32,000 bases of DNA from Vibrio vulnificus CMCP6 (lineage in GTDB: Bacteria > Pseudomonadota > Gammaproteobacteria > Enterobacterales > Vibrionaceae), in the NCBI RefSeq assembly GCF_000039765.1, contig NC_004459.3, positions 2,781,127 to 2,813,126 of the forward strand. The letters run 5' to 3'. Positions 2,940 through 28,755 of this stretch are shown piece by piece (position 1 is the first letter of the stretch; each line of letters opens with the position of its first letter). The notes beneath the pieces were generated by a model. It worked only from the letters and a program-made list of their open reading frames with translations, was not told where the DNA came from and did not search any database. Made by a program: the position numbers and the translations under genes.

Positions 2940-3153
2940 GCAGATAAAAACCGACCTCCCAACTCGATTTATAAATTATTTATAGAGCTTGCGAGAGACG
3001 TGCAACATTCGAGCTAAACATCTTGTTACATTCACACAACAAAATGATCCGTTTCACACATTTATCTTACAAATCAATCAGTAATAGTCTTTTCATAAGC
3101 GAGACTGTTGCAATAACAGCGCAAAAGGAGTTGATCTCACCCAGAGTAACCAC

Positions 3154-3633: not shown

Positions 3634-4261
3634 GGCTTATCTGCTACATATTCATAAAGTCTACATTGTAGTGAAACTGAGCGTAAAAATCCTTCTTAAG
3701 CACTTGAACTGTTTGCTTGTAGCCTGCCTTGCAACCGTTTTTCGAATCTTCAGTCGCGTTATCAATCTATCCAGCGATGAACATCATTTAAACCTTCGCT
3801 TGATGGCAGATTAACGAATAGATCTTGTGCTCGCTTTTGATAAACAACGCACAGTTCCGCTTAGGATCGAGTAAAGACAAATATAATCACGAAAACTGAA
3901 AAATCGTGAATTGCTCAAAAAGTCCTATCTCTCGTAAAAATATACAAGCATCGCCACCTTATAAAGTAATTTTATAATCAGATAATATTGACAAATGCAA
4001 CATTAACCATTTGTGTTGTTTTTTCGAGCTTGAGGCCAATTAACAATTAAGTCATTTAACAACTTACCTTTATATTGATAATTTCATTTCGTTGTCCATT
4101 CAGATTCAAATAATAAGACAAAAATTAAAACAATACTGTTGCAATAAATAATGTCGAAAATTAAACAAGTCAAATGCAAGCTATTAAGTAAACGTAAATT
4201 TTACATAGCAATACATTTGAACGATTAAAATCAATTTATTTAATCTTAATAGGAAACTAAA

Positions 4262-5449: not shown

Positions 5450-5462
5450 TTTTTCACTTGCA

Positions 5463-5492
5463 AAGCAGCACACTCGTGCTGCTTTAATTTAG
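5463..5492 (+). terminator. Terminator-like hairpin after the orphan gene
   Basis: Perfect 9-bp stem aagcagcac / gtgctgctt (5463-5471 and 5476-5484) with a 4-nt loop, followed by a T-rich stretch (taatttagtt). It starts 14 nt after the stop codon. Confidence 0.6.
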
Positions 5493-5730
5493 TTAATCAT
5501 CTTAAACATTAAAAGAATAATATTATTTTCTAAACACCCCGTTCATTTAACATTTTTAACAAAGTCATAAGTACGTATTTTTACAATCTCAAAAATTTAA
5601 CAACACCAACAAACCCAGCAATTATAATTTAAAAACATCTCAATTTTGCAATAAAAACTCAAACACGAACCAATATAAATCGAACAAAAATCATATGGCA
5701 ATCATAAATTAGTTTTATCACACGATAAGC

Positions 5731-5762
5731 CCCACCCAATATCGCTATAAATATTGGGTGGG
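5731..5762 (-). terminator. Hairpin just downstream of prpE; operon-end terminator or stabiliser
   Basis: Perfect 12-bp stem cccacccaatat / atattgggtggg with an 8-nt loop, 7 nt beyond the prpE stop. There is no clean U-tract in the minus sense. In the plus sense it is followed by tttattttt, so it could also stop read-through from the islet. Confidence 0.5.
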
Positions 5763-5768
5763 AATCGT

Positions 5769-7649: not shown

Positions 7650-7714
7650 AGTGCTTCCTCCAGTATGTCTTAACGGTCCTTTTCACCTTGCTCTTTGAAC
7701 AAGTAAGCTAAGAT

Positions 7715-8941
7715 TTATTCAAAGAGATCGGAGGGAACACGCACAAAGCCCTCCATCAGTATGCGAGCGCTGCGGCTCATAATGGCTTTTTCTACCACCC
7801 AACCTTGTTCAGTGGCTTTTGCTTGAGCGCCGACTTTGAGCGTCCCAGACGGATGGCCAAAGGTGACGGCTTGTTTCTCGCCACCACCGGCAGCCAAGTT
7901 CACTAAAGTGCCCGGCACGCAAGCGGCTGCGCCAATCGCGACCGCTGCGGTCCCCATCATGGCGTGATGCAGCTTGCCCATTGAAAGGGCGCGAACCAGC
8001 AGATCAACCTCTCCTGCCTCCACCACTTTGCCACTTGAGGCTTGGTAACTTTTCGGCTTCGCGACAAACGCCACTTTTGGGGTGTGCTGGCGACCTTCTG
8101 CTTCTTCAATCGAAGTAATCAAACCCATTTTTAGCGCGCCATAAGCACGAATGGTTTCAAACTTCGCTAACGCTTGCTCATCATTATTGATCTGCTCTTG
8201 CAGTTCCGTCCCCAAATACCCCAACGCCTCAGCATCAAGGAAAATGGTGGGAATGCCCGCATTAATGAGCGTGGCGTTAAAGGTGCCAATACCCGGTACG
8301 ACAAGATCATCCATCAAATTGCCAGTGGGAAACATGCTCCCCTCGCCATCGGCTGGGTCAACGAAATCCACTTGGATCTCTGCAGCAGGAAATGTCACGC
8401 CATCAAGAGAAAACTCGCCCGTTTCCTGCACCAAACCATGTTGAATGGGCACGTGCACTTCAATGGTTTTGCCAATGTTGGCTTGCCACACTTTCACCGT
8501 CACCACGCCATTTTGAGGAATGCGTTTTTCGTCAATCAAGCCAGCATGGATGGCAAATGGGCCAACCGCAGCAGACAAGTTGCCACAGTTACCGCTCCAA
8601 TCGACAAACGGTTTGTCGATAGAGACTTGACCAAACAGGTAATCAACATCGTGATCGGCGCGGCTGCTTTTGCTCACAATCACCGTTTTGCTGGTGCTGG
8701 ATGTCGCCCCGCCCATGCCGTCAATCTGTTTGCCGTAAGGATCTGGGCTGCCGATCACGCGCAGCAGCAGTTGGTCGCGTTTTTCCCCCGCAATTTGTGC
8801 CTCTGGCGGTAAATCCGCAAGGTTGAAAAACACCCCCTTGCTGGTGCCGCCTCGCATATACGTGGCAGGCACTTTCATTTGGCTCATCCGCGTATCGCAC
8901 CGTGCAGAGCTACGCGTAGAGGATTGTGTAGAAGGTTTCAT
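7715..8941 (-). CDS. prpF: 2-methylaconitate cis-trans isomerase PrpF
   Basis: The N-terminal PrpF hallmark ATYMRGGTSKGVFF is present, and the gene lies directly after acnD. ATG 8941 has AAGGAG 7 nt upstream and sits 2 nt from the acnD stop, suggesting translational coupling. ATG 8887 (MSQMKVPATYMRGG) fits the usual PrpF N-terminal length better, so the start is ambiguous. Confidence 0.88.
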   Translation of the reverse strand: MKPSTQSSTRSSARCDTRMSQMKVPATYMRGGTSKGVFFNLADLPPEAQIAGEKRDQLLLRVIGSPDPYGKQIDGMGGATSSTSKTVIVSKSSRADHDVDYLFGQVSIDKPFVDWSGNCGNLSAAVGPFAIHAGLIDEKRIPQNGVVTVKVWQANIGKTIEVHVPIQHGLVQETGEFSLDGVTFPAAEIQVDFVDPADGEGSMFPTGNLMDDLVVPGIGTFNATLINAGIPTIFLDAEALGYLGTELQEQINNDEQALAKFETIRAYGALKMGLITSIEEAEGRQHTPKVAFVAKPKSYQASSGKVVEAGEVDLLVRALSMGKLHHAMMGTAAVAIGAAACVPGTLVNLAAGGGEKQAVTFGHPSGTLKVGAQAKATEQGWVVEKAIMSRSARILMEGFVRVPSDLFE

Positions 8942-8943
8942 CG

Positions 8944-11544: not shown

Positions 11545-11575
11545 GGACTTGCTTCCCATGCAAAAGGGCGGAAAA

Positions 11576-11598
11576 CCTCCCCTCGCGACGAGGAGAGG
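11576..11598 (-). other. Intercistronic stem-loop between prpC and acnD
   Basis: cctcccctcg / cgaggagagg form a 10-bp stem with one mismatch and a 3-nt loop, located in the 53-68 bp gap between the prpC stop and the acnD start. Confidence 0.35.
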
Positions 11599-11612
11599 TC
11601 AATCTCTAGGCG

Positions 11613-12755
11613 CTAGCGCTGTTCAATCGGCACCCAATCTTGGTGATCTGGGCCAATGTAGTCAGCACTTGGACGAATGATTCGGTTATTAGCGCGCTGT
11701 TCAAACACATGCGCCGTCCAGCCTGTTAAGCGACTCATGACGAAAATCGGCGTAAACAGCTTGGTGGGAATGTCCATGAAGTGATAGGCCGAGGCATGGA
11801 AGAAATCGGCGTTACAAAACAGATCTTTCTCGCGTTTCATCACCGCTTCCACACGTTCTGAGACGGCGTAAAGATGGGTATCGCCCACCGCTTCTGACAA
11901 GGCTTTTGACCAACGTTTGATCAGAGCATTACGTGGGTCGCTTTCGCGATAAATCGCATGACCAAAGCCCATGATTTTCTCTTTGTTGGCCAACATGCGC
12001 AGGATGTTGCTTTCCGCCTCTTCTGGTGTTTGCCAGTTTTCGATCATCTCCATCGCGGCCTCATTAGCACCACCATGCAAAGGACCACGCAAAGTGCCAA
12101 TCGCCGCGGTTACACAAGAATGAATATCAGACAGCGTTGAGGCGCACACACGAGCGGCAAAGGTAGAGGCATTAAACTCGTGCTCTGCATACAAAATCAG
12201 CGAACAATGCATCACCTGCTTATGCAGTTCACTGGGCTCTTTGCCCGTGAGCATTTTGAGGAAGTAACCACCGATGCAATCTTGCGATTGGTCTTGCGTA
12301 TCGATGCGCACGCCATCGTGGCTAAAGCGATACCAGTAACAAATGATCGCAGGGAACAGCGCCAACATGCGCTCTGTCGCGTCAAGCTGCTGCGAAAAAT
12401 CGGTTTCTTGTTCTAAGTTCCCCAGCACAGAGCAGCCTGTGCGCATCACATCCATCGGATGCGCAGACGCCGGGATCAGCTCCAGCGCTTGCTTCAACTC
12501 CACCGGTAAGCCACGCAGGCCAATCAGGCGAGTTTTGTAAGCATCCAACTCTTGCTGCGTTGGTAAGTGACCGCGTAACAGTAAGTACGCCACTTCTTCA
12601 AATTGCGCATGGTTGGCCAAGTCAGTGATGTCATAACCACGATAGGTTAACCCTGTCCCCGTTTTACCGACAGTACATAAAGCGGTGCTTCCAGCGCTTT
12701 GACCACGCAGGCCTGCGCCACCTAACTCACCTTTCTTCGTTAAAGAACTAGGCAT
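11613..12755 (-). CDS. prpC: 2-methylcitrate synthase
   Basis: Contains the citrate synthase signature GFGHAIYRESDPR. The track ORF (401 aa, from 12818) looks over-extended. ATG 12755 (MPSSLTKKGELGGAGLRG) has a perfect AAGGAG 7 nt upstream (plus-strand ctcctt at 12763-12768) and gives 380 aa. Confidence 0.9.
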   Translation of the reverse strand: MPSSLTKKGELGGAGLRGQSAGSTALCTVGKTGTGLTYRGYDITDLANHAQFEEVAYLLLRGHLPTQQELDAYKTRLIGLRGLPVELKQALELIPASAHPMDVMRTGCSVLGNLEQETDFSQQLDATERMLALFPAIICYWYRFSHDGVRIDTQDQSQDCIGGYFLKMLTGKEPSELHKQVMHCSLILYAEHEFNASTFAARVCASTLSDIHSCVTAAIGTLRGPLHGGANEAAMEMIENWQTPEEAESNILRMLANKEKIMGFGHAIYRESDPRNALIKRWSKALSEAVGDTHLYAVSERVEAVMKREKDLFCNADFFHASAYHFMDIPTKLFTPIFVMSRLTGWTAHVFEQRANNRIIRPSADYIGPDHQDWVPIEQR

Positions 12756-12925
12756 TTTGAACTCCTTTTCTGTCTGACGTTGCTCTCTAGTGGAGCGTTT
12801 ATCATCAGACGGTTTCACGTTATTGGATTAAGTTAATTCCGACGGTATTCTTCTTGAACTTCCGTTTTTTGTTTTTCTTATCTTGGGCTTCCCCACTTTG
12901 CTCTCATCTAAAAAGCGCGTTGGGA

Positions 12926-13822
12926 TTATTTTCCTTCTGAAAACAGCTGATCGAGCTTGTCTTCGTACGCGTGATAGTTGAGATAGTCATAGAGCTCTTT
13001 ACGCGTCTGCATGGAGTCGATTAACGCCTCTTGATTGCCCACTTCCAACAAGTGGCGATAGACCATTTCCGCCGCTTTGTTCATCGCGCGGAAGGCACTC
13101 AACGGATACAGCACCATATCCACGTTGGATTTGGCCAATTCTTCACAACCATACAAGGGGGTTTGGCCAAATTCGGTAATGTTGGCCAATATCGGCACGT
13201 GCTTGCCCGTGGCTTGCGCCAAAGCAGCAGAAAATTGCTGATACTGCTCAAGTTTGTTCATTGCTTCGGGGAAAATCATGTCCGCGCCCGCTTCTACACA
13301 GGCAATCGCACGCTCAATTGCACTATCAATCCCTTCCACCGCCAGCGCATCGGTACGCGCCATAATCACAAAGTTGTCATCGACTCGTGCATCCACCGCC
13401 GCTTTAACGCGATCGACCATTTCTTGCTGAGAAACAATCGCTTTGTTTGGGCGGTGGCCACAACGTTTTTGCGCCACTTGATCTTCCATGTGAACCGCGG
13501 CTGCGCCAGCTTTTTCCATCGCTTTGATGGTGCGCGCGATGTTGAATGCGCCGCCAAAACCAGTGTCAATGTCCACCAGCAGAGGCAAATCACAGGCGTT
13601 GGTGATGCGCTCTACGTCCACCAGCACGTCGTTAAGTGTGGTGATGCCTAAGTCCGGCAAGCCGTAAGACGCATTAGCGATACCGCCGCCAGAAAGGTAA
13701 ATGGCTTGATGGCCGAGGCGTTTGGCCATCATGGCGCAATAAGGGTTGATGGTGCCGACGATTTGCAGCGGATCGTTTTGTTGTACGGCGAGTCTGAACT
13801 TCGCCCCCGGAGTTAAGCTCAT
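12926..13822 (-). CDS. prpB: 2-methylisocitrate lyase
   Basis: 298-aa ORF of the isocitrate lyase/PEP mutase family with the K-[KR]-C-G-H signature ([10 protein letters not shown]). SD AGGAAA lies upstream, and the gene is 12 bp downstream of the regulator gene. Confidence 0.92.
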
Positions 13823-13834
13823 AACACGTTTCCT

Positions 13835-14566
13835 CTAATCCTTTAGGATCTGTTGTTCGATTAATTTTCGGCTGCCGGAGATGTGTCTTCTCATCAACAT
13901 TTCCGACAACTCTTCATCTCGATTGCGAATCGCTTGCAGAATGAATTTGTGCTCTTCCAACGCTTCTTTGGGTCGTGATTGGGCACGCGGTGATTGATAG
14001 CGATACATGCGCAGTAAGTGGTACAGCTCGTCACACAGCAGCGCGATCAATTCGCGGTTGCGACTGGCTTTGATGATGCGGTAGTGAAAGTCGAAATCAC
14101 CGTGTTGATGGAAGTAAGAGGAACCTTCTACTTCATCAATGTGTTTCGAATGTGTCGACAATAGCAGTTCAAGGCTCAACAGCTCTTCTTGGCTGATGTA
14201 GCGAGCGGCAAGCCTCGCGGCCATGCCTTCTAGTGCTTCACGCACCGCATACAGCTCCACCAATTTTTCAGGTGAAAGAGTTATCACACGCGCCCCAACA
14301 TGAGGAACACGTTCGATCAAGCCAAGCCCTTCTAGTCGCATCATCGCCTCACGCAGTGGGCCTCGGCTCACGTGATAATGCTTGGCTAACTCGGGTTCCG
14401 AGATTTTGCTTCCCGGTGCGATTTGTCCATTCACAATCGCTTCAACCAAGGATTCGGTCAGCGATTCGGATTTGGTGTTTTCCTTGTCGCTGCCCGCAAG
14501 TTTGCCAATGGCTTTGGTGTCTACATTCATATTCAAATACGTTTCCTGACTGCAATCTGTCAACAA
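13835..14566 (-). CDS. GntR-family (FCD-type) transcriptional regulator, first gene of the prp operon
   Basis: Contains a winged-helix segment SEPELAKHYHVSRGPLREAMMRLEGLGLI followed by an all-helical FCD-like C-terminal half. It is apparently co-transcribed with prpB given the 12-bp gap. An alternative start is ATG 14530 (MNVDTKAIG). Confidence 0.85.
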   Translation of the reverse strand: MLTDCSQETYLNMNVDTKAIGKLAGSDKENTKSESLTESLVEAIVNGQIAPGSKISEPELAKHYHVSRGPLREAMMRLEGLGLIERVPHVGARVITLSPEKLVELYAVREALEGMAARLAARYISQEELLSLELLLSTHSKHIDEVEGSSYFHQHGDFDFHYRIIKASRNRELIALLCDELYHLLRMYRYQSPRAQSRPKEALEEHKFILQAIRNRDEELSEMLMRRHISGSRKLIEQQILKD

Positions 14567-14672: not shown

Positions 14673-17600
14673 TTACGCCGCCAGAGTGGCATTAATGTAT
14701 TTATTGATATCAACGCTATCTATCTGTTTCTCAGGCAAAAACATCTGTGCGTATTCAAGGTAAGTTCCGCTTTTCAAGAACAGTAAGAACAAATCCATGT
14801 CCAAATGCTCATCAAGGGCCATTTTGTACATAATGTCGACAGCTACACTGAGTGGTTTGGCTTTCTTATAAGGGCGATCAGCCGCCGTCAGCGCCTCAAA
14901 AATATCGGCAATCACAAGGATACGCTCCGGAATGGAGAGCTGATCGGCACTCAGTTTGCGCGGATACCCCGTGCCTTTGAGCGTTTCATGGTGAGTCGAG
15001 GCGTAGCGTGGCACTCGCGCAAGTTCCTCGGGGAATGGCAAAGATTCCAACATCTTAATGCCACTGATCATGTGCTCATTGATTTTGAAGCGATCTTCAC
15101 GTGTTAATGTCCCTGCGCGAATCGAGAGGTTGTAAATCTCCCCTAAATTGTAGAGGTGCTCTGGCACGTCGATGTTGATGCCATATTTGGCATCAAACTG
15201 CATCGGTCTGTCGCGCTCAATGATGTGATCAACCCTATCCACCAATAGTGGCTCAATGGCTGGTAGTGGCGCAGACGGTGTGGTGAGTCGGGATTCTTCC
15301 AACGGAGACAAACCTAAGCGATCGTCAAAATGGCGCAACCAAGTTTGCGCTGCGATTTGCTCAATTCGCTCAATCGCCTCTTGTTGCATGAATTCACCAC
15401 CGACATTACAACGGGCAATAAAGGCAAACTCTTCTTGTAACTTTTCTCTGCGTTGTACGAGTTGCGCTTCGGCCTGCTCTTTTGGAGCGCTTCCCGCAAT
15501 CAGGCGATTGAGATATTCAATCTCTGCATCACGCCACAACACTTCAAAGCGAGTGCGAATTTCATGAATACGGTTGTAGTTGGCTTCGAGCTTAGAACCT
15601 TTGTCGACAACATGCTCTGGGGTCGTTATTTTGCCGCAATCGTGCAACCAAGCCGCAATTCTAAACTCTCTACGCTCGGCATTGTTTTTGAATTTAAATG
15701 CTTTGAACTTACCTTCTTGACACTCTTCCGCCACTTTCGCCAACATCAGCCCCAACTCGGGAACACGGTTACAGTGACCTGCGGTATAGGGTGACTTATC
15801 ATCGATGGCTCCAGCGATGAGTTGGATAAAAGCTTCAACAAATTCTTCCTGCGCTTTTTGATGCTTTTTGATTTCCGCCACCATGTCCATCATCGCTTGA
15901 GATAACTGCGAGACCTCTTTAATGCGCGTTTCAACTGGCACTACCTCATCAAAACGTCGTTGTTTGATCTTGCGTGTTTGCGCAATCAAAGCAGAAATCG
16001 GGCGAACAATTGGCGAGCCAAAAATCCACGATGTTGGCAATAGAATCACCATCGCAGCGATCGTGATCGCCAGTGAGCGCCATAACTGCTGCATCACTTG
16101 GCCCATCACCACATCCTCTGGGACCACAACAGCAAGAAATTCTTGGTTGCTGTTGACGGGCACCAAATAGACATAGCGTGCCGTACCGCCAATTTCGACA
16201 ACGTTCATCTCGCCGTGTAAATCTGGCTGAGCCGCCAGTTCAAGTAGCTCACTGTAAGGGACAAAGCTGTTGTCGCGATAATGGTTGAGCCATTTCTGCG
16301 CGAGCCACGCTTTTTGCGCCTCACTGAGCTCGTTTAATGCCTTATTAATCACCTCTAGCAGCGCAGGTTGCGTCTGGTTGAGATAAAGAAACACCGGGAC
16401 TTTCTCTGCCATCGGCATTTTTTCTAACTGGATGGTTCGACCTAAGCTACTTTCTTTACGCTGTTTCAAAGAGTGATAGCTGTGCACCACACTCCCCACC
16501 TCGCCTTGCAGCAACCCGTTTAACGCCAAGGTCAAATCGGCATAGGTACGAATCTCTGTTGACGACTTTTGCAGCGCAAAGTTCTGCCCTTGTACCATGC
16601 CGACGCGCGCCTTGGCATCCGAGATTAAATGTCCGCTTTGATTGGTTTCACGATTGAGCGTCGCCACCGCTGGCTCAAAGTAAAACAACGGTTGGCTGGC
16701 TAAGCCATTTAACGATTCGGACGCAAACACCGCGTTTAAAATGTCCACCTCACCATCGTGATAACGCTGCTTAAGCTCTGCCGAACTGAAACCGTTAGTG
16801 AACTCAAATTGCAACCCCGTCATCGTGGCAATCATTTTCAAAAGATCGACCGCGTAACCTCTTGGCTCACCCGATTGGCTAAAATCAAACGGCATCCAGT
16901 TGAGTTGGTTCGAGACTTTAAGCACCCCAGCCGCGACAATGGCCTCTTTTTGCTCGGCGGTCAGTGCAATCGGCGATATGGCTGGCATTCGTTGTTCATC
17001 ACGTTGCTCTTGACGGCTTTCTGCAATGATTTCGCCTTTGCGATTGAATAAAAACGCCGAAATACCTTGCCCTTCGCTAAGCCCCATCGCTTCTGGCGTC
17101 ATGTGAGAAGCAACAGCGGAAAGCACGATATCAATACCAATCACCGAATGGCTACTGCGGATGGAATAGGTCTGCCCTGTGATCTTCAAATGCTGGAACA
17201 GATAAGGTTCTGTCTTGGTAATGCGATCCGCCTGCGCCGCATCATACCAAGGGCGCTCCGTTGGCAAGTATCGGCTCGGCTCACGAATGGTGCGAGTCAC
17301 GGCACGATTCACGTCATAGTATCGGGTGACACGCGTGCGCTTAATGCCCTCGCCTCGGATATCCATCACCACCCAACGTTCATTCTCCGTTGCCGACATT
17401 TTTTCTCGCACAATGGGGGACGAATTCAGATTGATGATTTGATAGAAATCCTCGTTTTCTTTGCCATAGTAGATGCTGTAGAACATCGGATTGTCCTCGA
17501 GCACCTCGGTGATCAAAGTTTGGATTTCTTGCTGAGTGAATTTGTTTTCCGTGGCCATCGCAACGCTTTTTAAGATCCGCGCGCTATTACTGGCACTCAG

Positions 17601-17801
17601 TTCAATTTCTTTGACATAGTCACTGACATCAGCAGAAGCCAGCGTCAATTTCGACATCACTTGCTCTTGGGACATGGCTTTACCGAAGTGGTACTGCAAA
17701 GAAATGGCGACAAGTGCCGTCATCATGGTCGCAATCAAAAACATGCTACCAACGGTAAAACGTATGGAAAACTTTCTAGCCTGACGCAATGAACTCTTCA
17801 T
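14673..17801 (-). CDS. Membrane-bound HD-GYP c-di-GMP phosphodiesterase with tandem periplasmic Cache-like and SBP (PBPb) sensor domains and a HAMP domain
   Basis: 1042-aa ORF. TM1 is FLIATMMTALVAISL. A Cache-like region contains RPWYDAA...SVIGIDIVLS. An SBP_bac_3-like region contains NWMPFDFSQSGEPRGYAVDLLKMIATMTGLQFEF...GEVDILNAV. TM2 is LAITIAAMVILLPTSWIF, followed by a HAMP domain. HD (AAWLHDCGK) and HHE...GTGYP (THHETLKGTGYPRKL) motifs are intact. SD GGAGGG lies 8 nt upstream. Confidence 0.88.
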   Translation of the reverse strand: MKSSLRQARKFSIRFTVGSMFLIATMMTALVAISLQYHFGKAMSQEQVMSKLTLASADVSDYVKEIELSASNSARILKSVAMATENKFTQQEIQTLITEVLEDNPMFYSIYYGKENEDFYQIINLNSSPIVREKMSATENERWVVMDIRGEGIKRTRVTRYYDVNRAVTRTIREPSRYLPTERPWYDAAQADRITKTEPYLFQHLKITGQTYSIRSSHSVIGIDIVLSAVASHMTPEAMGLSEGQGISAFLFNRKGEIIAESRQEQRDEQRMPAISPIALTAEQKEAIVAAGVLKVSNQLNWMPFDFSQSGEPRGYAVDLLKMIATMTGLQFEFTNGFSSAELKQRYHDGEVDILNAVFASESLNGLASQPLFYFEPAVATLNRETNQSGHLISDAKARVGMVQGQNFALQKSSTEIRTYADLTLALNGLLQGEVGSVVHSYHSLKQRKESSLGRTIQLEKMPMAEKVPVFLYLNQTQPALLEVINKALNELSEAQKAWLAQKWLNHYRDNSFVPYSELLELAAQPDLHGEMNVVEIGGTARYVYLVPVNSNQEFLAVVVPEDVVMGQVMQQLWRSLAITIAAMVILLPTSWIFGSPIVRPISALIAQTRKIKQRRFDEVVPVETRIKEVSQLSQAMMDMVAEIKKHQKAQEEFVEAFIQLIAGAIDDKSPYTAGHCNRVPELGLMLAKVAEECQEGKFKAFKFKNNAERREFRIAAWLHDCGKITTPEHVVDKGSKLEANYNRIHEIRTRFEVLWRDAEIEYLNRLIAGSAPKEQAEAQLVQRREKLQEEFAFIARCNVGGEFMQQEAIERIEQIAAQTWLRHFDDRLGLSPLEESRLTTPSAPLPAIEPLLVDRVDHIIERDRPMQFDAKYGINIDVPEHLYNLGEIYNLSIRAGTLTREDRFKINEHMISGIKMLESLPFPEELARVPRYASTHHETLKGTGYPRKLSADQLSIPERILVIADIFEALTAADRPYKKAKPLSVAVDIMYKMALDEHLDMDLFLLFLKSGTYLEYAQMFLPEKQIDSVDINKYINATLAA

Positions 17802-21441: not shown

Positions 21442-21467
21442 GCCGCCTCAACTGAGGCGGTTTTTTT
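21442..21467 (+). terminator. Rho-independent terminator of tctCBA
   Basis: Stem ccgcctc / gaggcgg (21443-21449 and 21454-21460) with a 4-nt loop, then TTTTTTT (21461-21467). Confidence 0.85.
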
Positions 21468-21495: not shown

Positions 21496-22383
21496 TCAAA
21501 AAGCCGTCAGCATGATGGTCATTTCATCTTCATAGCGCCCTTCTCTTGCCGATGGCATAGGCGTATTTTCGAACTGTAAGCGAAAGCGTGTTTCACGCTG
21601 CTGATGAGGACGCAAGTAATGTGATACATTTAATCTTAGCGGCTGACCATTAAGAGAAGTGGCATACGGAATTTTATAGCGTGCATTTTTAACGTTGACC
21701 ATGTCACCTTGGTTTCGCGAATCCAGTTCCAATTTGACACTGCCATTGCTCACCACAATCACATCGAGTTGGCGTTGATTCTTCTCGGTTAAGTTGCCCA
21801 TATCAATACTGACGTTGGTGCCAGACACCGAGACATGTGCCCCCTGACGGCTTTCCACTCGCGCCCTTACAAAAGGTTTAACTTGGTAATTGAGAGACAC
21901 GGCTCGACCAAATTCGTTATTAGCCGCCTTAACTTTAAACTCAAAATCACTTTGATATAGCCCAGAAAGTAGCACTTTTCCTTGAGGAATATGTACCCAA
22001 AACTCACTTCTCTTTCGCCCTTGGAGTGGCAAAATAAAATTGCCTTGCTGATCACGCTGCAGGCTTTTTCTTTGCCCATCCAATAGGTTAGACGCCACTG
22101 CGCCTTGAGGCCCAACAATCGGCTCCTTCCAACCGTTTTTGGCGTGAATCACCAATTGAGGAGAGCAAGCGAGCAGCGCCCCTTCCAACTCAACATAGCC
22201 TTGGAACCACAAGACATTATCGGAACTGCTAGCGTTGTCCACCGGATGACTGGACAACTGCACAACAAATTCGCCTTGGCAGGCTTGCGTTGCAGGCTCT
22301 GCCGCTGCCAGAGGCTGGGAAACAAAACAGATCAGAGTGCCAAACAACACCCGTGTGATGCGCCGAGTGAGAGAGTTACCCAT
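21496..22383 (-). CDS. Two-domain spore-coat-U (SCPU)/Csu-like pilus subunit; putative distal or tip subunit
   Basis: 295-aa ORF with a signal peptide (LFGTLICFVSQPLAAA). Two successive modules each end in the SCPU-type C-terminal strand G-x-Y-x-(x)-D-x-hydrophobic pattern: SGLYQSDFEFKVKA and EGRYEDEMTIMLTAF (compare CsuA/B ending GDYKDTLLVTVNF). The first module has a Cys pair (ACQGEF ... LLACSPQ). SD AAGGAGG lies upstream, 18 bp after the usher stop. Confidence 0.65.
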   Translation of the reverse strand: MGNSLTRRITRVLFGTLICFVSQPLAAAEPATQACQGEFVVQLSSHPVDNASSSDNVLWFQGYVELEGALLACSPQLVIHAKNGWKEPIVGPQGAVASNLLDGQRKSLQRDQQGNFILPLQGRKRSEFWVHIPQGKVLLSGLYQSDFEFKVKAANNEFGRAVSLNYQVKPFVRARVESRQGAHVSVSGTNVSIDMGNLTEKNQRQLDVIVVSNGSVKLELDSRNQGDMVNVKNARYKIPYATSLNGQPLRLNVSHYLRPHQQRETRFRLQFENTPMPSAREGRYEDEMTIMLTAF

Positions 22384-22401
22384 CTTCTCCTCCTTACCAA
22401 T

Positions 22402-24804
22402 TTAATGTGCTGATTTGTCCATCAGCACCACGTTAATCTGACCAAGATTGATCAAGCTGTTGTCTGACTCAGGGATCACAATCCACAAAGTTTCAGCGCT
22501 TAAACCTGATAGCTCTAAACGATACTCTCCGGGTGCGATGCCTTGAATGTAGAATCGACCTTGTTGATTGGTAAAAAACGCCATTCGTTTGTCGTCCACT
22601 ATCAGGCTCGCTTGACGATAGGCGATCGCTTCACCCTCGGTTGTCGTCAAAAAACCCGTTACCGTGTACGAGGCATCCGAGCCCATGATGAGTCGATGCC
22701 CTGTCGCAGCCCCTGGCGACACATCGATTTTTCCCGAACCCCAGTCATAACCAAGCGGGGCGTTGTGCACGTTGTACTCGATGATATTGATGCCATAGGG
22801 CTGCGAAATCGAAATCAAACCGTTGATACTTGGTGTGGCCAACGCGGTGGCTCTCCCTTCGCTATCCACATCCAAATACGCGGTCGCCTCCGTCAAAGTG
22901 GGATGCATGCTCGCCACCATAAAAGGCCCAGAAAGCGCTCGGCCCCATCCCCATTCACCGTCCACCATACCAAGACTGGTCGCGAGCCTAACGGAACCTT
23001 GATACTGCGCTTGGTCATCGAGGCGGTTTTGTTTTCGAACAAGCTCGCTTTCCACTCGAAAACGGTTGGCCGTATAACTGAGCATGGCTTTTTGACTCTT
23101 GATGCTTTGGTCCTGCTCGGCTTCAATACGCACGCCAATGTCATCGACATAGTTGAGCCCTTCGTTGTTGAAGTAGAGTCGGCTTCGCTCCGTCAAACTG
23201 TTGTACGATGCCCCAATACGGTGGCTCTCTTGTTCTGAATACCAGTTGTATTCAAACGTAAACAACAGACGGTTATCGCCCTCAACATATCGCGCTGACT
23301 CTTCATACTCTGAACCAAGGCCAACGGTAAGCCCTTTGTGACGCCAGTTAAGCAGCACAGAGGTCTGCACTTCGTCCTCTTTTTCGTCAAAAAGGGTGTA
23401 GCGACCTGACAACGTGAGATCGACAGCGTCGCTGATTTGCCAAAAATAGCTGCCCAAAATCTGAGAATACTGATTCCCCTCTTCCCCCACTCTCCACGGT
23501 TTGCTTTGAAATTGCTCGGAATACTCATACGCCAGACGCAAATTGGGAGATTGACTCTCCCCATTACCAATCACGCTATTTTCATAGTCCAGAGAAGCTA
23601 TACGACCTTGCTCTTGATTGTGGCTCCACGAAAAACGGCTGGTGAGATTGCCCAATCCAGTGCTGACCGTGGCCAGCATTCCGATCACGCCGCCCTCTTT
23701 GGCCCACAGTGCATTGCTGCCCAAAGTGAGCCAATCTGCCACCCCATACTCTAGATAGCCAGTCGCCAGCCATGCGTTTTCATATTCAATGCCTTGTTCT
23801 TGGTAAACAATCGGTCGGCCAACCGAAAAGGCGTAATCCAGCAAACCTTGTTGCAAAAGGCGCGCATTGTAGAACTGAGTAAAGGTCAGTACCTCTTGGC
23901 GGCCAGAAAGGTAATTCACCACGACGGTGACCTCGTTCGCACCATTATCTAAAATCAAGTTCTGCAAGTTGTACCTTCCAGCCTCTAAGCGGCCAGAGGA
24001 GACTCGCTCTCCATTCACATACACTTCAACTTCTGCCGATTCTTGCAGCAACAACTGTTGGCTGCTTTGGGGGCTGATCGAACGTTCAGGCTGTAAATCG
24101 GCATAACGGCTTTCTACGGTAAATCCCCCCAACGCTAATCCATAAAGATGGCCGGACTCACCACTGAACACATCGCCTACCGATGCGCGAAGCGGCAAGT
24201 CCGGATCGTCGTAAAACGCCAGCCATTCTCCGCGAACGTAGTCGTGACTCTCCTCATCCATTTGCAGATGATTGGCCAGTTGAAGATTAATGCCAGAGAC
24301 GCCACCCACGTTCATTTGGCTTAGCCAGTCGATGCTCGAATACCAGCTTTCACTCTCATTTTGCCAATGACGGTTGTAAGCAAAATTGAAGCTGTTGAGC
24401 CAGCTGACACTGCCACTCGCCGATGCTTGAAAAGGCGGATATTGTTGTGAAGCATTCAAGGTGCGTTCGCTTAAAGCCTCTTGCGGCAGCGTGAGGTCAA
24501 TGGTGAGTGACTCTAAGTTGAGGTGAAAATTAACGCCAAGCTCGTTCCATTTGTCGACGTGGATAAAATCACCACTTTGGTGTGCAAATCGTTCACGCCA
24601 CCAAGCGTCGGAAATTCTGTCTGCCAATAGCACGTTTAGCGCCTCTGCTGACACAGATTTCAGCGTCATGCCTTCAATTTCAATCGGCAATTCGCCCAAT
24701 TGCGTCTCGGAATACCAAACTGGCAATGAAAGCCGATATTCCGTGCAAAACCCGCTCACCGGGCATAAACAGAGAAATAGGAATGCATACCACCATCGCC
24801 GCAT
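22402..24804 (-). CDS. Outer-membrane fimbrial usher-like protein
   Basis: 800-aa ORF with a signal peptide (WWYAFLFLCLCPVSGFC). It carries an usher-like conserved stretch EVEVYVNGERVSSGRLEAGRYNLQNLILDNGANEVTVVVNYLSGRQEVLTF and then a long Tyr/Gly/Ser-rich region with beta-barrel character. The C-terminal segment looks like a beta-sandwich (GRFYIQGIAPGEYRLEL). It lies between the chaperone and subunit genes. Confidence 0.7.
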   Translation of the reverse strand: MRRWWYAFLFLCLCPVSGFCTEYRLSLPVWYSETQLGELPIEIEGMTLKSVSAEALNVLLADRISDAWWRERFAHQSGDFIHVDKWNELGVNFHLNLESLTIDLTLPQEALSERTLNASQQYPPFQASASGSVSWLNSFNFAYNRHWQNESESWYSSIDWLSQMNVGGVSGINLQLANHLQMDEESHDYVRGEWLAFYDDPDLPLRASVGDVFSGESGHLYGLALGGFTVESRYADLQPERSISPQSSQQLLLQESAEVEVYVNGERVSSGRLEAGRYNLQNLILDNGANEVTVVVNYLSGRQEVLTFTQFYNARLLQQGLLDYAFSVGRPIVYQEQGIEYENAWLATGYLEYGVADWLTLGSNALWAKEGGVIGMLATVSTGLGNLTSRFSWSHNQEQGRIASLDYENSVIGNGESQSPNLRLAYEYSEQFQSKPWRVGEEGNQYSQILGSYFWQISDAVDLTLSGRYTLFDEKEDEVQTSVLLNWRHKGLTVGLGSEYEESARYVEGDNRLLFTFEYNWYSEQESHRIGASYNSLTERSRLYFNNEGLNYVDDIGVRIEAEQDQSIKSQKAMLSYTANRFRVESELVRKQNRLDDQAQYQGSVRLATSLGMVDGEWGWGRALSGPFMVASMHPTLTEATAYLDVDSEGRATALATPSINGLISISQPYGINIIEYNVHNAPLGYDWGSGKIDVSPGAATGHRLIMGSDASYTVTGFLTTTEGEAIAYRQASLIVDDKRMAFFTNQQGRFYIQGIAPGEYRLELSGLSAETLWIVIPESDNSLINLGQINVVLMDKSAH

Positions 24805-24834
24805 GATCGACCTACTTGGCCCCTAAGGCCGTGA

Positions 24835-25494
24835 TTACTTGACCAGCAAAGATTGCACATTAACGACAACACTTTGATTTGGAACCAAATATTGCATTGG
24901 CAATAACGGTTCTAACTCAACCCAAGACCAGTTCATCTTCTGATTGTGCCAAGTGACTTCGTGGCTCAGTTTGGTCAGCTCAAGCACACTGGTGCCTTCA
25001 TTACGAATGGTTAACTGCGCCGCGTCATTCTCGCCTTGAGTCAAATGGCTTGAATAGTCAGTTCGAACATCCTGAGGTGAGACAAAAATCAGTGCGCCAA
25101 TGCGGAAAAGCATTTGAATGCTGTCGTTACTGGATTCATTTTTTAGTGGCAGTTGGCTGGCAATTAAACGATAGGACTCCGCACTTAGCTTAGGCTCCCC
25201 AATGTATTGCACTTTAATGCTCTGCGATTTGCCAGGTTGAATCAGCACTTGTGGTGGAAACACCATTAGCTCATCGGTTTCTGACAAGGTTTCATTGTTG
25301 TTGAGCGAGACTTCTCTTTTGATTGGAATGAGTTCCACTGGTAGTGGAGCAAGAGAGGTATTGGTGATTTTGAAAAAAACCGTGGTTCCTTTACCGGCAT
25401 CGTCCAAAAACTGCACCATAGGGAACAGCTCAAATGCCAGTGTTTGACCATGAAAGAATGAGAACAATATCGTCAATAAGCAAATCCGTTTCAT
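24835..25494 (-). CDS. PapD-like periplasmic pilus chaperone
   Basis: Has signal peptide MKRICLLTILFSFFHGQTLA and chaperone-type motifs TVFFKITNTSLAPLPVEL and LMVFPPQVLIQPGKSQSIKVQYIG...ESYRLIASQLP. The track start at 25506 is a TTG lying inside the SD. ATG 25494 has GAGGTG 4 nt upstream. Confidence 0.7.
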   Translation of the reverse strand: MKRICLLTILFSFFHGQTLAFELFPMVQFLDDAGKGTTVFFKITNTSLAPLPVELIPIKREVSLNNNETLSETDELMVFPPQVLIQPGKSQSIKVQYIGEPKLSAESYRLIASQLPLKNESSNDSIQMLFRIGALIFVSPQDVRTDYSSHLTQGENDAAQLTIRNEGTSVLELTKLSHEVTWHNQKMNWSWVELEPLLPMQYLVPNQSVVVNVQSLLVK

Positions 25495-25511
25495 ACGACA
25501 CCTCAATTAAA

Positions 25512-25530
25512 GGGGGACATGTCGTCCCCC
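25512..25530 (-). terminator. GC-rich hairpin between the subunit and chaperone genes; candidate intra-operon attenuator
   Basis: gggggac / gtccccc form a 7-bp stem with a 5-nt loop, sitting in the 46-bp gap after the 169-aa subunit gene. In the minus sense it is followed by tttaatt. Confidence 0.5.
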
Positions 25531-25540
25531 ACAAAGTGAA

Positions 25541-26050
25541 TTACATATGGTAGAGCGATACCCACATGTAGCCTTCGTATTTACCCCAACGAGCGCCTTT
25601 ATGAGGAAGCGATCGGATGGTCAATTTATGTTTGGATGACATTTGCTTATCAAGGCTATTGCTGACATCAATGGTGTCGACGATACGCGCTGCCATGGTT
25701 TCCGTTTCTGCATCTTTCACAGACACTTTGTCGTTGAATGAATATTCCATTGGAATTTCATCGCCGTTGCCGTTCTTAAACGCATATGGGTCTACCAGCA
25801 AAGTGCCTTTTGTTCCGTAAGAGTTGCACCAAGCTTTAAACGCGAAAGTTTTTTTATCTGACTTTTGCGTCAAATCGAAATTTAGCGTTTCGAGCTCTTC
25901 ACTTGCTCTCATTTCACAGCGCTTAGGCACTTCACCGCTAAACTTCACCAAAAAGTCAGCGCGTGCTTCGTCACTCACAACCCAAGAATTAGCGGCTGCG
26001 CCTGCGGAATAAAGAAGGGTTAACGCGACACAAGTTGCTAAACGTTTCAT
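25541..26050 (-). CDS. Small secreted SCPU/Csu-like pilus subunit; putative major pilin
   Basis: 169-aa ORF with signal peptide MKRLATCVALTLLYSAGAAA, a Cys pair (PKRCEMRA ... KAWCNSYG), and a C-terminal strand WGKYEGYMWVSLYHM resembling the SCPU terminal motif. It is the first structural gene of the operon. A perfect AAGGAG lies upstream. Confidence 0.6.
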   Translation of the reverse strand: MKRLATCVALTLLYSAGAAANSWVVSDEARADFLVKFSGEVPKRCEMRASEELETLNFDLTQKSDKKTFAFKAWCNSYGTKGTLLVDPYAFKNGNGDEIPMEYSFNDKVSVKDAETETMAARIVDTIDVSNSLDKQMSSKHKLTIRSLPHKGARWGKYEGYMWVSLYHM

Positions 26051-26322
26051 GATTGTTCTCCTTTACATAGTGTTCCTGCGGTGTAGTTCGTTCGTTGCAA
26101 GTTAAATTTACGCACATACGACTTTTTTACCATCGGTCATCTGACCAGTTAGAAACACGCAAAGGGATGAGGAAGGGCTAATTAGAAGGAAAAATTGATT
26201 TAAAACAAACAATATACAAAGAACTTGGCAGGAACTCGTCATTCCACTGCATTCTCTTTCTTGGACTGAATCAGAATATGAAGCTCTGAATCCTAGAAAT
26301 TGAGTCATTTGGGTATATAGAA

Positions 26323-26958
26323 CTACTCAATCATTAATGTCGCTAATTGCGATCGGCTTTGTTTTCCTGTTTTACATAAAATATGTGATACATGACTTTT
26401 GACTGTGCTTAAACTGACATTCAACTGTTCTGATATTTCTTTATTGGAATACCCCTGAAGCAAATAAAGAAATACTTTTTGCTCTTTGCCTGACAGTTCA
26501 TATTTGCTGCCAACCACATCCACTGAACAACTGGATGTAGCTTGAGTACGAACAATATTACGCAGCGCATAAGACATGGCTTCTCGACTGAACCACAATT
26601 GACCCGACGCCACCATTCGAATGGCTCTATGTAAGTTTTCCAGCGTTTTTTCTGCCTCTAAAAAGCCAAACCAGCCAAGTGAAATCAGCCCTTTCACGCC
26701 ATCCAAGTCTTGCTGCGTCGCGTTGGCTAAGATCCACGCACCACCGCGTGTAGTGGGAGAAATTAAATATTGAGAAGGATTTCCTAAGGTGAGGCGGTCA
26801 TAAATCACCAGCGTATTGTCACTTAATTGCCAAAGCGACTCTAGTGACGACTGCACCAAAAACTCATAATGGATAAAGGTATGTGATAATCCAGCAACCA
26901 CTAACGTCGACCACTCCGGATCTTTTGAAATAACCCATACCTTATGTGATTCCTTCAT
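26323..26958 (-). CDS. VpsT/CsgD-family LuxR-type transcriptional regulator with a putative c-di-GMP-binding W[FLM][TS]R motif
   Basis: 211-aa ORF. The C-terminal LuxR HTH reads LSGKEQKVFLYLLQGYSNKEISEQLNVSLSTVKSHVSHILCKTGKQSRSQLA. The N-terminal half is receiver-like. The segment ASGQLWFSREAMSYAL aligns by eye with VpsT DEMWLTRKLAQEYIL. SD AGGAAGGA lies 6 nt upstream. Confidence 0.75.
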   Translation of the reverse strand: MKESHKVWVISKDPEWSTLVVAGLSHTFIHYEFLVQSSLESLWQLSDNTLVIYDRLTLGNPSQYLISPTTRGGAWILANATQQDLDGVKGLISLGWFGFLEAEKTLENLHRAIRMVASGQLWFSREAMSYALRNIVRTQATSSCSVDVVGSKYELSGKEQKVFLYLLQGYSNKEISEQLNVSLSTVKSHVSHILCKTGKQSRSQLATLMIE

Positions 26959-27191
26959 CGTAAATCCTTCCTGGAAATGAAAATAAAGTACTATCGAACT
27001 ATAAGCCGTCTTTATGCATACTACTTTATTAGCAGATTTTGTTTTTGATTATCCTCACAATCCTTTTTTATTTATATAGAACTCATTTGTCATATCGCTT
27101 TATTTAAATGAGATTTAATAAAATCAGTTGTAACCCATATTTTTCTCGTCTAAATAAAAACGCCCCCAAACAAGTCGCGTAAATAAAGAGC

Positions 27192-27233
27192 AGAGTTAAA
27201 AGATAAGAGTTAAGAGATAAGAGTTAGAAGATA
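27192..27233. repeat. 3 x 14-bp imperfect tandem repeat, also readable as 6 x 7-bp AGAGnTA-like units
   Basis: The units are agagttaaaagata, agagttaagagata and agagttagaagata, head to tail at 27192-27205, 27206-27219 and 27220-27233. They differ only by A/G changes at unit positions 8-9. Confidence 0.85.
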
Positions 27234-27258
27234 AAAATACGTGATAACAAAAGACGTG

Positions 27259-27284
27259 CGATGACATCATTTTTGATGTCATCG
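27259..27284 (-). terminator. Terminator-like hairpin after the GlyGly-CTERM protease gene
   Basis: Perfect 10-bp stem cgatgacatc / gatgtcatcg with a 6-nt loop, 54 nt downstream of the stop. In the minus sense it is followed by cacgtcttttgtt. Confidence 0.5.
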
Positions 27285-27337: not shown

Positions 27338-28564
27338 TCATTCACATGCTTTTCGACGAGCTCGCCAAAAGAGCAACAAACCTAAAAGGCTAACCCAATT
27401 GACGCTGCCGCTACTTTCCGATCCTGCACAGCCTAGACCCACCTCTCCACCGCCAACACTGGCAGACGTATTGCTCGAACACTCGTTGCTTTGGCCTCCA
27501 CTCTCAGTGGTATTGTCATCTGGCGTTTCTTGGCTAGCCGTTGTCATAAACGTGGGTTTAGTGATTTGCTGAGCAGGGAGTGTTGCCGAATCTGTGTAAG
27601 CACTTATCCAATCGAGATAGGTCACCACATTGGTATACCAAGTGGGATAAGTGACCGAACTACAAACGGTATTGATCAAAGGCGATGCACTGATGATACC
27701 CACTTGGAACTGATTTCCCACACCATCCGACCACACTAGTGGCCCACCAGAATCCCCCAAACACGCACCGTGACCGTAGGTTTCATTGCCAATATGAATT
27801 AGCTGCTTTGGCAGCGTACACAGTTTGGTCACATCGGCTGAAGAGGCAATATAGAGCGGCAACGTGTTGGCTTGCTCCAACATATCGAAGCAATCCGCAA
27901 TGGGAACCATCGCGATATCGGCCTGTTTAAGTGGAATCACCTCAGGAATGGGCGGTGGCGTGTCAACACTTGGCGAGTTAGGAATATCACTCCCCCATCC
28001 TAATACCAGCGCGTTTTCGTTTCGTATGGCATCGTCCCAGCTTGCCACTTGCGTCAAAAAATCTTGATAACTGGTTGTATTAATTAAGGTGACTGGTGTG
28101 GCTGGTAAGTCCCGTTTCACTCTAATAAGCGCTAGGTCATTCTGATAAGCCGTACTGACTAGCTCCTCTCCTTGAGCCGTTTGCTTGGTGGTTCTTAAAG
28201 GCATGTAATCTGGATGGATCACCACATGGGAGACATCATAAATGTGTTCCACTTGTGACTGAAACAGGTCGAGAATGCCTGCTCTCACGGTGACTTCTTT
28301 TAACGCCACGATCTCGTAATTAGTAAATGACTCGGGGTTACTATCTGACGTTTCTTGAGTCGATTTGGACTGAATTAAGCTGTGAGCCGCGGTTAAGACC
28401 CAACGCGAGTTAATGATGGTGCCTCCGCATCTGGATTGCTCAGCAAACGAGCTGGCATCCACACTCACCACATAGTTTTCACTGGAATCGATACCCGCCA
28501 CAATCGCTTGCGCCATCATAGGCAAGCTCAGCGCTATGACACCAACTGACAGTTTTGTTTTCAT
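27338..28564 (-). CDS. Trypsin-fold (S1) serine protease with a C-terminal GlyGly-CTERM (rhombosortase-type) sorting signal
   Basis: Triad contexts are TAAHSL, NDLALIRV and GDSGGPLV. The C-terminus SSGSVNWVSLLGLLLFWRARRKACE is a Gly/Ser-rich segment, one TM helix and a basic cluster. The track ORF starts at 28609. ATG 28564 (MKTKLSVGVIALSLPMMAQA) has GGAAG 7 nt upstream and gives a normal signal peptide. Confidence 0.85.
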   Translation of the reverse strand: MKTKLSVGVIALSLPMMAQAIVAGIDSSENYVVSVDASSFAEQSRCGGTIINSRWVLTAAHSLIQSKSTQETSDSNPESFTNYEIVALKEVTVRAGILDLFQSQVEHIYDVSHVVIHPDYMPLRTTKQTAQGEELVSTAYQNDLALIRVKRDLPATPVTLINTTSYQDFLTQVASWDDAIRNENALVLGWGSDIPNSPSVDTPPPIPEVIPLKQADIAMVPIADCFDMLEQANTLPLYIASSADVTKLCTLPKQLIHIGNETYGHGACLGDSGGPLVWSDGVGNQFQVGIISASPLINTVCSSVTYPTWYTNVVTYLDWISAYTDSATLPAQQITKPTFMTTASQETPDDNTTESGGQSNECSSNTSASVGGGEVGLGCAGSESSGSVNWVSLLGLLLFWRARRKACE

Positions 28565-28755
28565 CGCATTGCTTCCATATGCATCTTTGTCCATAAAAGA
28601 ATAAGACAAGGTTGGAAAATTCGCCTGTTGAGATCACTGTTTTTCATAATATTAATGTCTGTTATGTAATCAGTTTGTTAACTTGAGGAAAGCAGAACGT
28701 CGACAACGACTCTGCAACGTCAGGGATAAAGGGATAGAAGGATCGCTCACAACAC

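Follow-up and report, generated by a model that had tools for sequence, protein, structure and literature searches.

Five consecutive genes on the minus strand of a 32,000-nucleotide stretch of Vibrio vulnificus CMCP6 DNA (contig NC_004459.3, positions 2,781,127 to 2,813,126; hereafter the window, whose own numbering is used throughout) most likely encode a thin, tipped chaperone-usher fibre of the archaic class (sigma, Csu-like). Judged from the proteins, this fibre would be built by donor-strand complementation and exchange, with a 295-amino-acid (aa) protein as the tip adhesin and a 169-aa protein as the rod subunit. The locus is VV1_2740-2744 in CMCP6 and VV1517-VV1521 in strain YJ016, on chromosome I of V. 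vulnificus, and the cluster is an already catalogued member of a well-known kind of system, in a divergent sub-clade. Gene content, the class affinities of usher and chaperone, the folds of the pilins, the conservation of motifs, the co-inheritance of the regulator, a hairpin and a palindrome were read directly in the present analysis. What it adds to the catalogue entry is the divergent sub-clade, the co-movement of the five genes, the W-F-S-R (WFSR) motif of the regulator, the hairpin conserved in structure and the palindrome as a candidate operator.

The open reading frame (ORF) check of the window recovered one regulator gene and four structural genes, all co-directional on the minus strand, as a first-pass annotation of this DNA had described them. 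The regulator (26323-26958, 211 aa; VV1517/VV1_2744) is followed after 272 bp by the putative major pilin (25541-26050, 169 aa; VV1518/VV1_2743), which is called “uncharacterized” in the public annotation. Then come a PapD-like chaperone (24835-25494, 219 aa; VV1519/VV1_2742), an outer-membrane usher (22402-24804, 800 aa; VV1520/VV1_2741), and a two-domain putative tip adhesin (21496-22383, 295 aa; VV1521/VV1_2740). The spacers between the structural genes measure 46, 30, and 18 bp, in agreement with the 18-46 bp reported earlier, and every peptide string cited in that annotation was found in the translations. Signal peptides had been claimed for all four structural products; assessed by eye, a charged start and a hydrophobic core are present in all of them, and a small-x-small cleavage site in three. 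The chaperone gene was also located correctly, only that its proposed TTG start at 25506 is unlikely. The ATG at 25494 is preferred because the pilin stop codon is followed by a hairpin, a GAGG sequence and then this ATG, and the public annotation likewise gives 219 aa. An identical 169-aa protein is encoded by chromosome I of YJ016 (BA000037.2) and by many further V. vulnificus assemblies. The flanks are constant among the assemblies of this species, with TctCBA to one side of the cluster and, to the other, a trypsin-like protease, TauE, and a methyl-accepting chemotaxis protein. The locus-tag mapping is backed by synteny: VV1_2748 is a COG3437 response regulator (PMC3091676), and an HD_5/HD-domain gene lies four genes past the regulator in orthologous loci.

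By the pairwise scores of usher and chaperone, the assembly machinery is archaic (sigma), because the two proteins are nearest to CsuD and CsuC, the gene order is csu-like, and the distribution agrees with this class. To this extent the archaic chaperone-usher operon proposed at first pass is supported. Each class was represented by reference operons, namely csu, a Burkholderia spore coat protein U (SCPU) operon, fim, ecp, and cfaABCE. In a phmmer score matrix among ten ushers, the window usher reached 71 bits with the sigma usher of the Burkholderia SCPU operon and 65 bits with CsuD (E 2e-19), against 9 bits with FimD, -2 bits with EcpC, and no match with CfaC. A tblastn search of 72,556 plasmids with the same protein matched 99 records, an annotated CsuD among them at E 6e-11; Acinetobacter, Rhizobium, Ralstonia, and Sinorhizobium were the leading genera and Escherichia was outside the ten most frequent. 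A search of Pfam for PF00577, suggested as a check in the first-pass annotation, gave a marginal 27.0 bits (cutoff 27.1), and the identity of the usher is carried by the phmmer relation to CsuD and the tblastn matches to annotated ushers. The “usher-like stretch” noticed earlier falls inside residues 254-310, the region with weak matches to the Caf1A chain 3fcg (E 0.029) and to the E-set domain of TcfC (E 0.036). We take 3fcg to be the middle or plug domain of Caf1A. At the other end of the usher, residues 714-772 form a CarboxypepD_reg-like stretch below threshold.

The chaperone is more readily recognized. It matches PapD_N (PF00345) with 32.1 bits, above the cutoff of 23, as had been expected of a PapD-like chaperone, and in Pfam it has no PapD_C match, as is also the case for CsuC. 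Its best match among sequences of solved structures in the Protein Data Bank (PDB) is CsuC, both with the single sequence (E 0.004) and with a profile (E 0.0018); EcpB comes next, and no classical chaperone was matched. The phmmer scores run in the same order, with 19.5 bits for CsuC, 12 for EcpB, 6.5 for CfaA, and no match for FimC. The strand region E-S-Y-R-L-I-x-x-x-L-P aligns with CsuC.

The whole module recurs well beyond V. vulnificus. Its proteins are 44-66% identical in other Vibrio species, and the same layout is found in Aliivibrio and Shewanella, so that it moves as a five-gene unit through these three genera and its conservation is far beyond chance. Besides V. vulnificus itself, V. 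alfacsensis, V. harveyi, V. owensii, V. sinensis, and Aliivibrio have close homologues of both subunits and of the chaperone; the subunits are annotated there as “hypothetical protein” and the chaperone as “fimbria/pilus periplasmic chaperone”. Outside this orthologous group, the closest ushers (110-183 bits) are found on V. alginolyticus plasmid NZ_CP046807, on a plasmid of Leptolyngbya sp. BL0902, and on plasmid pLA5 of Novosphingobium pentaromativorans. Sister ushers thus come from Cyanobacteriota (Leptolyngbya) and Alphaproteobacteria (Novosphingobium, Qipengyuania, Niveispirillum). Only archaic systems range beyond the beta- and gamma-Proteobacteria, to which the other classes are confined (PMC9452303), and given this phylum-wide spread, the cyanobacterial and alphaproteobacterial sister operons fit the archaic class. 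Like the window operon, the sister operons consist of one or more “hypothetical” pilins, a chaperone, an usher, and a “hypothetical” protein of 290-305 aa. They differ in having one or two pilins and one or two chaperones, and some of their pilins come near to the SCPU threshold. The V. alginolyticus plasmid operon also has an adjoining LuxR-type gene, but here it is downstream and carries WLPR in place of WFSR. This operon (NZ_CP046807.1, 36124-46457) comprises two pilin and two chaperone genes, an usher, a 292-aa tip protein, and the downstream regulator, and its location on a plasmid indicates that the sub-clade is mobile.

The 169-aa protein has a signal peptide and an N-terminal extension with the invariant alternating pattern F33-V35-F37-G39-V41, followed by a cysteine (Cys), the first of the pair C45/C75. 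It ends in the motif G-K-Y-E-G-Y-M-W-V-S-L-Y, that is, a C-terminal strand of the form G-x-Y-x-[DG] with alternating hydrophobic residues. The N-terminal extension and its Cys are paralleled in CsuA/B by the pattern V-x-V-x-L-x-I...C; among the reference pilins, Fim shares only the N-terminal feature and CfaB only the C-terminal one. In the 295-aa protein, an N-terminal module at about residues 29-155 holds the pair C35/C73 and a C-terminal pilin module at about residues 156-295 is free of cysteine, and so the Cys pairs that the first-pass annotation had placed near the start of the modules hold for the 169-aa protein and for the first module of the 295-aa protein, not for its second. Since the first Cys of the 295-aa protein is only 7 residues beyond the predicted cleavage site, the protein would lack an N-terminal donor strand and, therefore, could occupy only the distal end of a fibre. 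A Cys right after the signal peptide is also seen in CsuE and in the Burkholderia tip protein. These two proteins each hold two SCPU stretches as well, so a tip of two modules appears by sequence to be the norm for sigma systems, and not the special trait that had been made of it.

Relationship of the subunits to SCPU pilins (PF05229) was traced by hhalign on mature sequences, since with the signal peptides kept spurious N-terminal matches arose (pilin family with Fim, 22%). The whole 295-aa protein aligned with the tip proteins of the sister operons (93%, E 2.8e-7) and its C-terminal domain with the sister pilins (79-83%). The mature 169-aa family aligned with a combined profile of the pilin domains of the clade (77%, E 2.2e-5, 126 columns), in which both Cys align with those of CsuA/B. 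The sister pilins in turn aligned with true SCPU pilins (94-95%), and in the Pfam comparison they almost reach the SCPU model (21.6 bits, cutoff 22.4). The window subunits did not exceed 2% with CfaB, CfaE, EcpA, and FimH. As for the reference pilins themselves, the SCPU pilins (CsuA/B, CsuA, CsuB, Burkholderia) aligned with classical Fim pilins at 83-85% over about 135 columns and gave no alignment with the alpha-class CfaB. Archaic and alternate systems are commonly lumped together as “non-classical”.

Among named systems, Csu of Acinetobacter baumannii (csuA/B-A-B-C-D-E), the prototype of the archaic class, is close in kind. Both have the order pilin, chaperone, usher, two-domain tip protein, with CsuD and CsuC as the nearest named relatives of the machinery; in both, the chaperone matches PapD_N only, the tip protein has a Cys directly after the signal peptide, and the pilin shows a putative donor strand ahead of its first Cys, an aligned second Cys and the C-terminal G-x-Y-x-[DG] strand. 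The differences are that the window operon lacks the adaptor pilins CsuA and CsuB and has four structural genes instead of six, that its chaperone is about 58 aa shorter, and that its regulator is VpsT-like, in contrast to the reference locus, where the gene found upstream of csu is of the TetR family. The reference proteins also score far better with the family models: CsuA/B reaches 79 bits and CsuE 103 bits with PF05229, the range for these two and the Burkholderia tip protein being 79-179 bits, and with PF00577 CsuD reaches 131 bits and the Burkholderia usher 102 bits, both with a clear PapC_C. Ushers of the clade of the window score 27-77 bits and have no PapC_C, and a CarboxypepD_reg-like C-terminus is present in the window usher and in two of the three sister ushers. 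By its weak Usher score, the missing PapC_C, and pilins that fall outside Pfam, the module would represent a distinct, divergent sub-clade.

Several observations weigh against the reading as an archaic fibre. Neither the 169-aa nor the 295-aa protein has a PF05229 match at E<=1, or any Pfam match at all, an outcome that the first-pass annotation had itself listed as contrary to its proposal. An exhaustive HMMER profile search with the 169-aa family in 1.84 billion proteins found about 6 relatives (at 50% clustering), some of them from Shewanella, and no bridge to SCPU; otherwise it returned repetitive false positives. Against PDB sequences, the profiles of the two subunit families returned nothing but noise, and in direct hhalign the 169-aa family and SCPU did not exceed 5%. 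By these profile comparisons the subunits are formally outside the SCPU family, and what survives of the earlier SCPU assignment is a likely remote SCPU ancestry, to which the transitive profile links (77-95%) and the terminal motifs point. The AlphaFold2 models do not settle the class either. For the 169-aa protein the mean predicted local distance difference test score (pLDDT) is 78.6, with residues 1-44 free of strands and residues 1-25 below 50, and Foldseek matched the model to CfaB (E 6e-5), FimG, and the Csu pilus 7zl4 (E 3e-3), all at a template modelling (TM) score of about 0.5. The model of the 295-aa protein (pLDDT 77.1; above 85 in the C-terminal domain) matched two-domain pilin proteins, that is, the CfaB-CfaB fusion 3f84 (E 7e-9), CfaE-CfaB 3f83, CfaE 6k73, and FimH. 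Both models recover the chaperone-usher pilin fold; they support “pilin” and “two-domain tip-like protein” without telling the classes apart, since the best matches are the alpha-class CfaB and CfaE and at TM about 0.5 are no better than generic pilin similarity. As to the usher, its 65 bits with CsuD make it no nearer to CsuD than CsuD is to FimD (67 bits), and because it has in addition no PapC_C match in Pfam and barely reaches the Usher cutoff, it is by sequence a deep branch rather than a typical member of sigma. To date no fibre has been seen, and one of the genes was reportedly repressed at high cyclic di-GMP (c-di-GMP), as relayed by PMC13348674, where the labels are ambiguous. The same paper is inconsistent on VV1_2744, which appears in its list as the LuxR regulator and elsewhere as a “fimbrial/pilus subunit gene” repressed at high c-di-GMP.

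The structural matches raise the question of whether the operon might rather encode an alternate (alpha, CFA/I class-5-like) pilus, in which one major pilin is combined with a two-domain tip adhesin as are CfaB and CfaE. CFA/I of enterotoxigenic Escherichia coli (cfaABCE) shares this composition and the minimal content of four genes with the window operon, the top Foldseek matches of both subunit models belong to it, CfaB has the G-x-Y motif at its C-terminus, and even the usher shows the weak TcfC E-set match given above. The sequences of the machinery tell otherwise. Ushers and chaperones of the two systems are unrelated by sequence: the window usher has no phmmer match to CfaC and -2 bits with EcpC, and the chaperone scores three times higher with CsuC than with CfaA. 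The order pilin-chaperone-usher-tip is not the chaperone-pilin-usher-tip of cfaABCE, the N-terminal Cys of the window pilins is missing from CfaB, hhalign of the subunits with CfaB, CfaE, and EcpA stays at or below 2%, and relatives in cyanobacteria and Alphaproteobacteria lie beyond the stated range of the alpha class. The sequences of usher and chaperone, the order of the genes, and the distribution of relatives thus lead us to reject the alpha-class reading, which we hold to be very improbable.

Two further readings accept the archaic machinery or leave it aside. The archaic class includes the spore-coat protein U secretion system, and the operon could secrete a non-fibrous surface layer or polyadhesin of the type of the Caf1 capsule or the Myxococcus Mcu spore-coat protein U, a reading with which the unusual pilin family outside Pfam and the lack of an observed fibre would agree. 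The gene that follows the usher gene, in the same place as csuE, encodes a two-domain terminal subunit that would lack a donor strand, and this points instead to a tipped fibre; the organism does not sporulate, and the conserved putative donor strand of the pilin is suited to polymerization. We regard the non-fibrous product as improbable, if a little less so than the alpha-class pilus. Equally remote as the latter is a decaying or silent relic without current function, for which one could cite the weak scores with the family models and the lack of expression or phenotype data in the searchable literature. Against it stand five intact ORFs, a pilin sequence that does not vary among many assemblies, and the retention across genera of the functional motifs, the ribosome-binding site, the hairpin, and the candidate operator; moreover, the cluster is carried by 99.5% of clinical and 85.4% of environmental isolates (PMC13348674, supplement). 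The tipped archaic fibre is consequently the reading that we retain.

For the assembly of such a fibre a scheme can be drawn up in which fibre formation, polarity, ligand, c-di-GMP binding, and the direction of regulation are taken over from the family. Archaic pili are characterized by twin hairpins (A'-A''/B-B') in the pilin and by a thin zigzag rod (PMC9452303). In the window system, all four structural products would be exported by Sec, and the chaperone would cap the open groove of each subunit through donor-strand complementation. The two-domain protein would enter the usher first, as its missing donor strand allows only the distal tip. The 169-aa pilins would then be added by donor-strand exchange, each inserting its N-terminal F-x-V-x-F-x-G-x-V strand into the preceding subunit, and a thin fibre would grow. 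A stem-loop past the pilin gene may keep pilin mRNA above the mRNA of the assembly genes. The adjacent regulator, which has the VpsT-type W[F/L/M][T/S]R motif, would control transcription, probably by binding GGTCAGATGACC about 95 bp upstream of the pilin gene, and such control would couple the production of the fibre to the level of c-di-GMP.

The regulator carries a C-terminal GerE helix-turn-helix (PF00196, 54.8 bits) and matches VpsT (3kln) in BLASTP at E 3e-9, with 27% identity over residues 98-204. Its W122-F-S-R125 aligns at W131-L-T-R134 of VpsT, the sequence of which was checked against 3kln. W[F/L/M][T/S]R is reportedly the motif by which VpsT binds c-di-GMP. WFSR is kept in five orthologues from three genera, including those of V. 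harveyi, V. jasicida, Aliivibrio sifiae, and Shewanella sp. D64. In the N-terminal half Pfam gives no Response_reg match, residues 1-150 have no match among PDB sequences, and NCBIfam yields only partial FimZ and NarL matches from about residue 92. The helix-turn-helix is thus of the GerE type as in VpsT of V. cholerae, BrpT and BrpS of V. vulnificus, and CsgD, and the W[F/L/M][T/S]R motif is aligned with that of VpsT, whereas the N-terminal half is not recognizably similar to VpsT and the gene is tied to a pilus operon, not to exopolysaccharide genes. Both VpsT and BrpT bind c-di-GMP directly (PMC10519070, PMC6978666). Judging from the motif, the regulator probably senses c-di-GMP as well; that the fibre genes are in fact controlled by c-di-GMP through it is plausible, and we are evenly divided on it. 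The first-pass annotation had called the LuxR/VpsT-like regulator dedicated, and rightly, because it travels with the module and the whole five-gene unit recurs in four genera, in different chromosomal contexts. The same comparison sets aside two c-di-GMP genes that flank the operon in V. vulnificus, a 1042-aa sensor and the HD_5/HD gene; they are outside the module, since they are absent beside the operon in the other genera. In the sensor (14673-17801, minus strand), a periplasmic SBP_bac_3 domain is joined to an HD-GYP (HD_5) domain, an architecture that points to a c-di-GMP phosphodiesterase.

Regulator and pilin genes are separated by an intergenic region of 272 bp (26051-26322, minus strand), which presumably holds the promoter and 5' untranslated region of the structural operon. 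A conserved ribosome-binding site, AAGGAG, stands at its end, and comparison of V. vulnificus with the loci of the harveyi clade shows conserved blocks within an otherwise divergent spacer. The regulator has been predicted as a transcription unit apart from the four structural genes (PMC13348674, supplement). A scan with the sigma-70 consensus found no site in the intergenic regions, and fewer sites than in shuffles. The region contains the perfect palindrome GGTCAGATGACC (26135-26146, minus strand), which occurs once in the window where 0.09 matches are expected. All nine orthologous loci compared have a single copy of its core CAGATGACCGAT, which lies 93-103 nt ahead of the pilin ATG, and at the equivalent position Aliivibrio has GGCCATTTGGCC. 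From its position and conservation, GGTCAGATGACC is a candidate operator for the adjacent regulator. Upstream of the regulator itself, at 26959-27260, further conserved blocks are shared with the loci of the V. harveyi clade, among them a TATAGT -10-like element and ATTGTGA...AATCAAA; the consensus scan did not detect these blocks as a promoter.

At the junction of pilin and chaperone genes, the scan for terminator-like structures identified a GC-rich stem-loop (25512-25530, minus strand) made of GGGGGAC, the loop gacat and GTCCCCC, followed by TTTAATT. The V. harveyi clade, Aliivibrio, and Shewanella also have a hairpin at this junction, in all with four unrelated stem sequences, and so it is conserved in structure and not in sequence. 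In chaperone-usher operons, an attenuating or stabilizing hairpin is expected as a means to yield a surplus of the major pilin, and the stem-loop in the window is probably a partial terminator or mRNA stabilizer that keeps the pilin in excess. A second GC-rich hairpin (21442-21461, strand not assigned) lies between the convergent tip gene and tctA; it has its T-run on the plus strand as the terminator of tctA and is also the probable 3' end of the pilus operon. In the orthologous loci of the V. harveyi clade, a strong terminator is found past the tip gene.

The first-pass annotation had put the operon forward as a candidate new organelle of adhesion or biofilm formation in vibrios, and its novelty could not be upheld. 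A recent study (PMC13348674, mBio 2026) lists as “Cluster 14” five chromosome I orthologues, that is, the chaperone VV1_2742, the usher VV1_2741, the fimbrial subunit VV1_2740, the LuxR-family regulator VV1_2744, and VV1_2743 as unknown. It places this exact five-gene cluster in the sigma clade (Nuccio and Baumler, 2007, as cited in PMC13348674) and calls its role unexplored; the supplement gives the YJ016 tags VV1517-VV1521 and CsuD as the best match of the usher in VFDB. Sigma-fimbriae are also annotated in V. parahaemolyticus (VPA1504-1509). The description as uncharacterized is fair as regards experiments, none of which were found on the cluster in the searchable literature, and literature searches with the YJ016 and MO6-24/O locus tags returned nothing. 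What may go beyond the catalogue is an unnamed archaic sub-clade of marine Vibrionaceae and Shewanella, with cyanobacterial and alphaproteobacterial cousins, whose pilins lie outside the SCPU model, whose ushers have a distinct C-terminal domain, and which is hard-wired to a VpsT-type c-di-GMP sensor acting on a palindromic operator; in this full form we put the proposal forward tentatively and consider it rather doubtful. If true, it would mean a second-messenger-gated adhesive fibre that aids host or surface colonization by V. vulnificus and is slightly enriched in clinical isolates. Work on adhesion in V. vulnificus has been concerned mainly with pili of the type IV and Tad kinds. A chaperone-usher fibre whose genes are carried by nearly all clinical isolates could be an overlooked colonization factor or a surveillance marker, as PMC13348674 suggests. 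The c-di-GMP motif, the candidate operator, the attenuator-like hairpin, and the subunits outside the SCPU model provide directly testable hypotheses, and leave the kind of system unchanged.

Other genes in the window merit brief mention. Beside the regulator lies a trypsin-like serine protease (27338-28609, minus strand) with a GlyGly-CTERM sorting signal at its C-terminal end (TIGR03501, 22.2 bits, cutoff 15.5; residues 399-420), which would make it a VesB-like rhombosortase substrate. A second protease of the trypsin family, secreted and 547 aa long (1296-2939, minus strand), has a chitin-binding module of the CBM_5_12 family together with a choice-of-anchor-D-like domain, and its C-terminal stretch is GbpA-like. 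Positions 3001-6000 form a low-GC island (36-40%, compared with about 50% in the flanks) that may have been horizontally acquired; in it, an ORF of 395 aa (4262-5449, plus strand) has no Pfam or NCBIfam match and lies beside a GNAT acetyltransferase. Finally, a complete methylcitrate (prp) set occupies 5769-14566 (minus strand), with AMP-binding PrpE-like, PrpF, aconitase (AcnD-like), citrate-synthase family, and phosphoenolpyruvate (PEP)-mutase/isocitrate-lyase family proteins; it represents ordinary metabolism and also has a 243-aa ORF, the orthologue of which in an orthologous locus is GntR/FCD.

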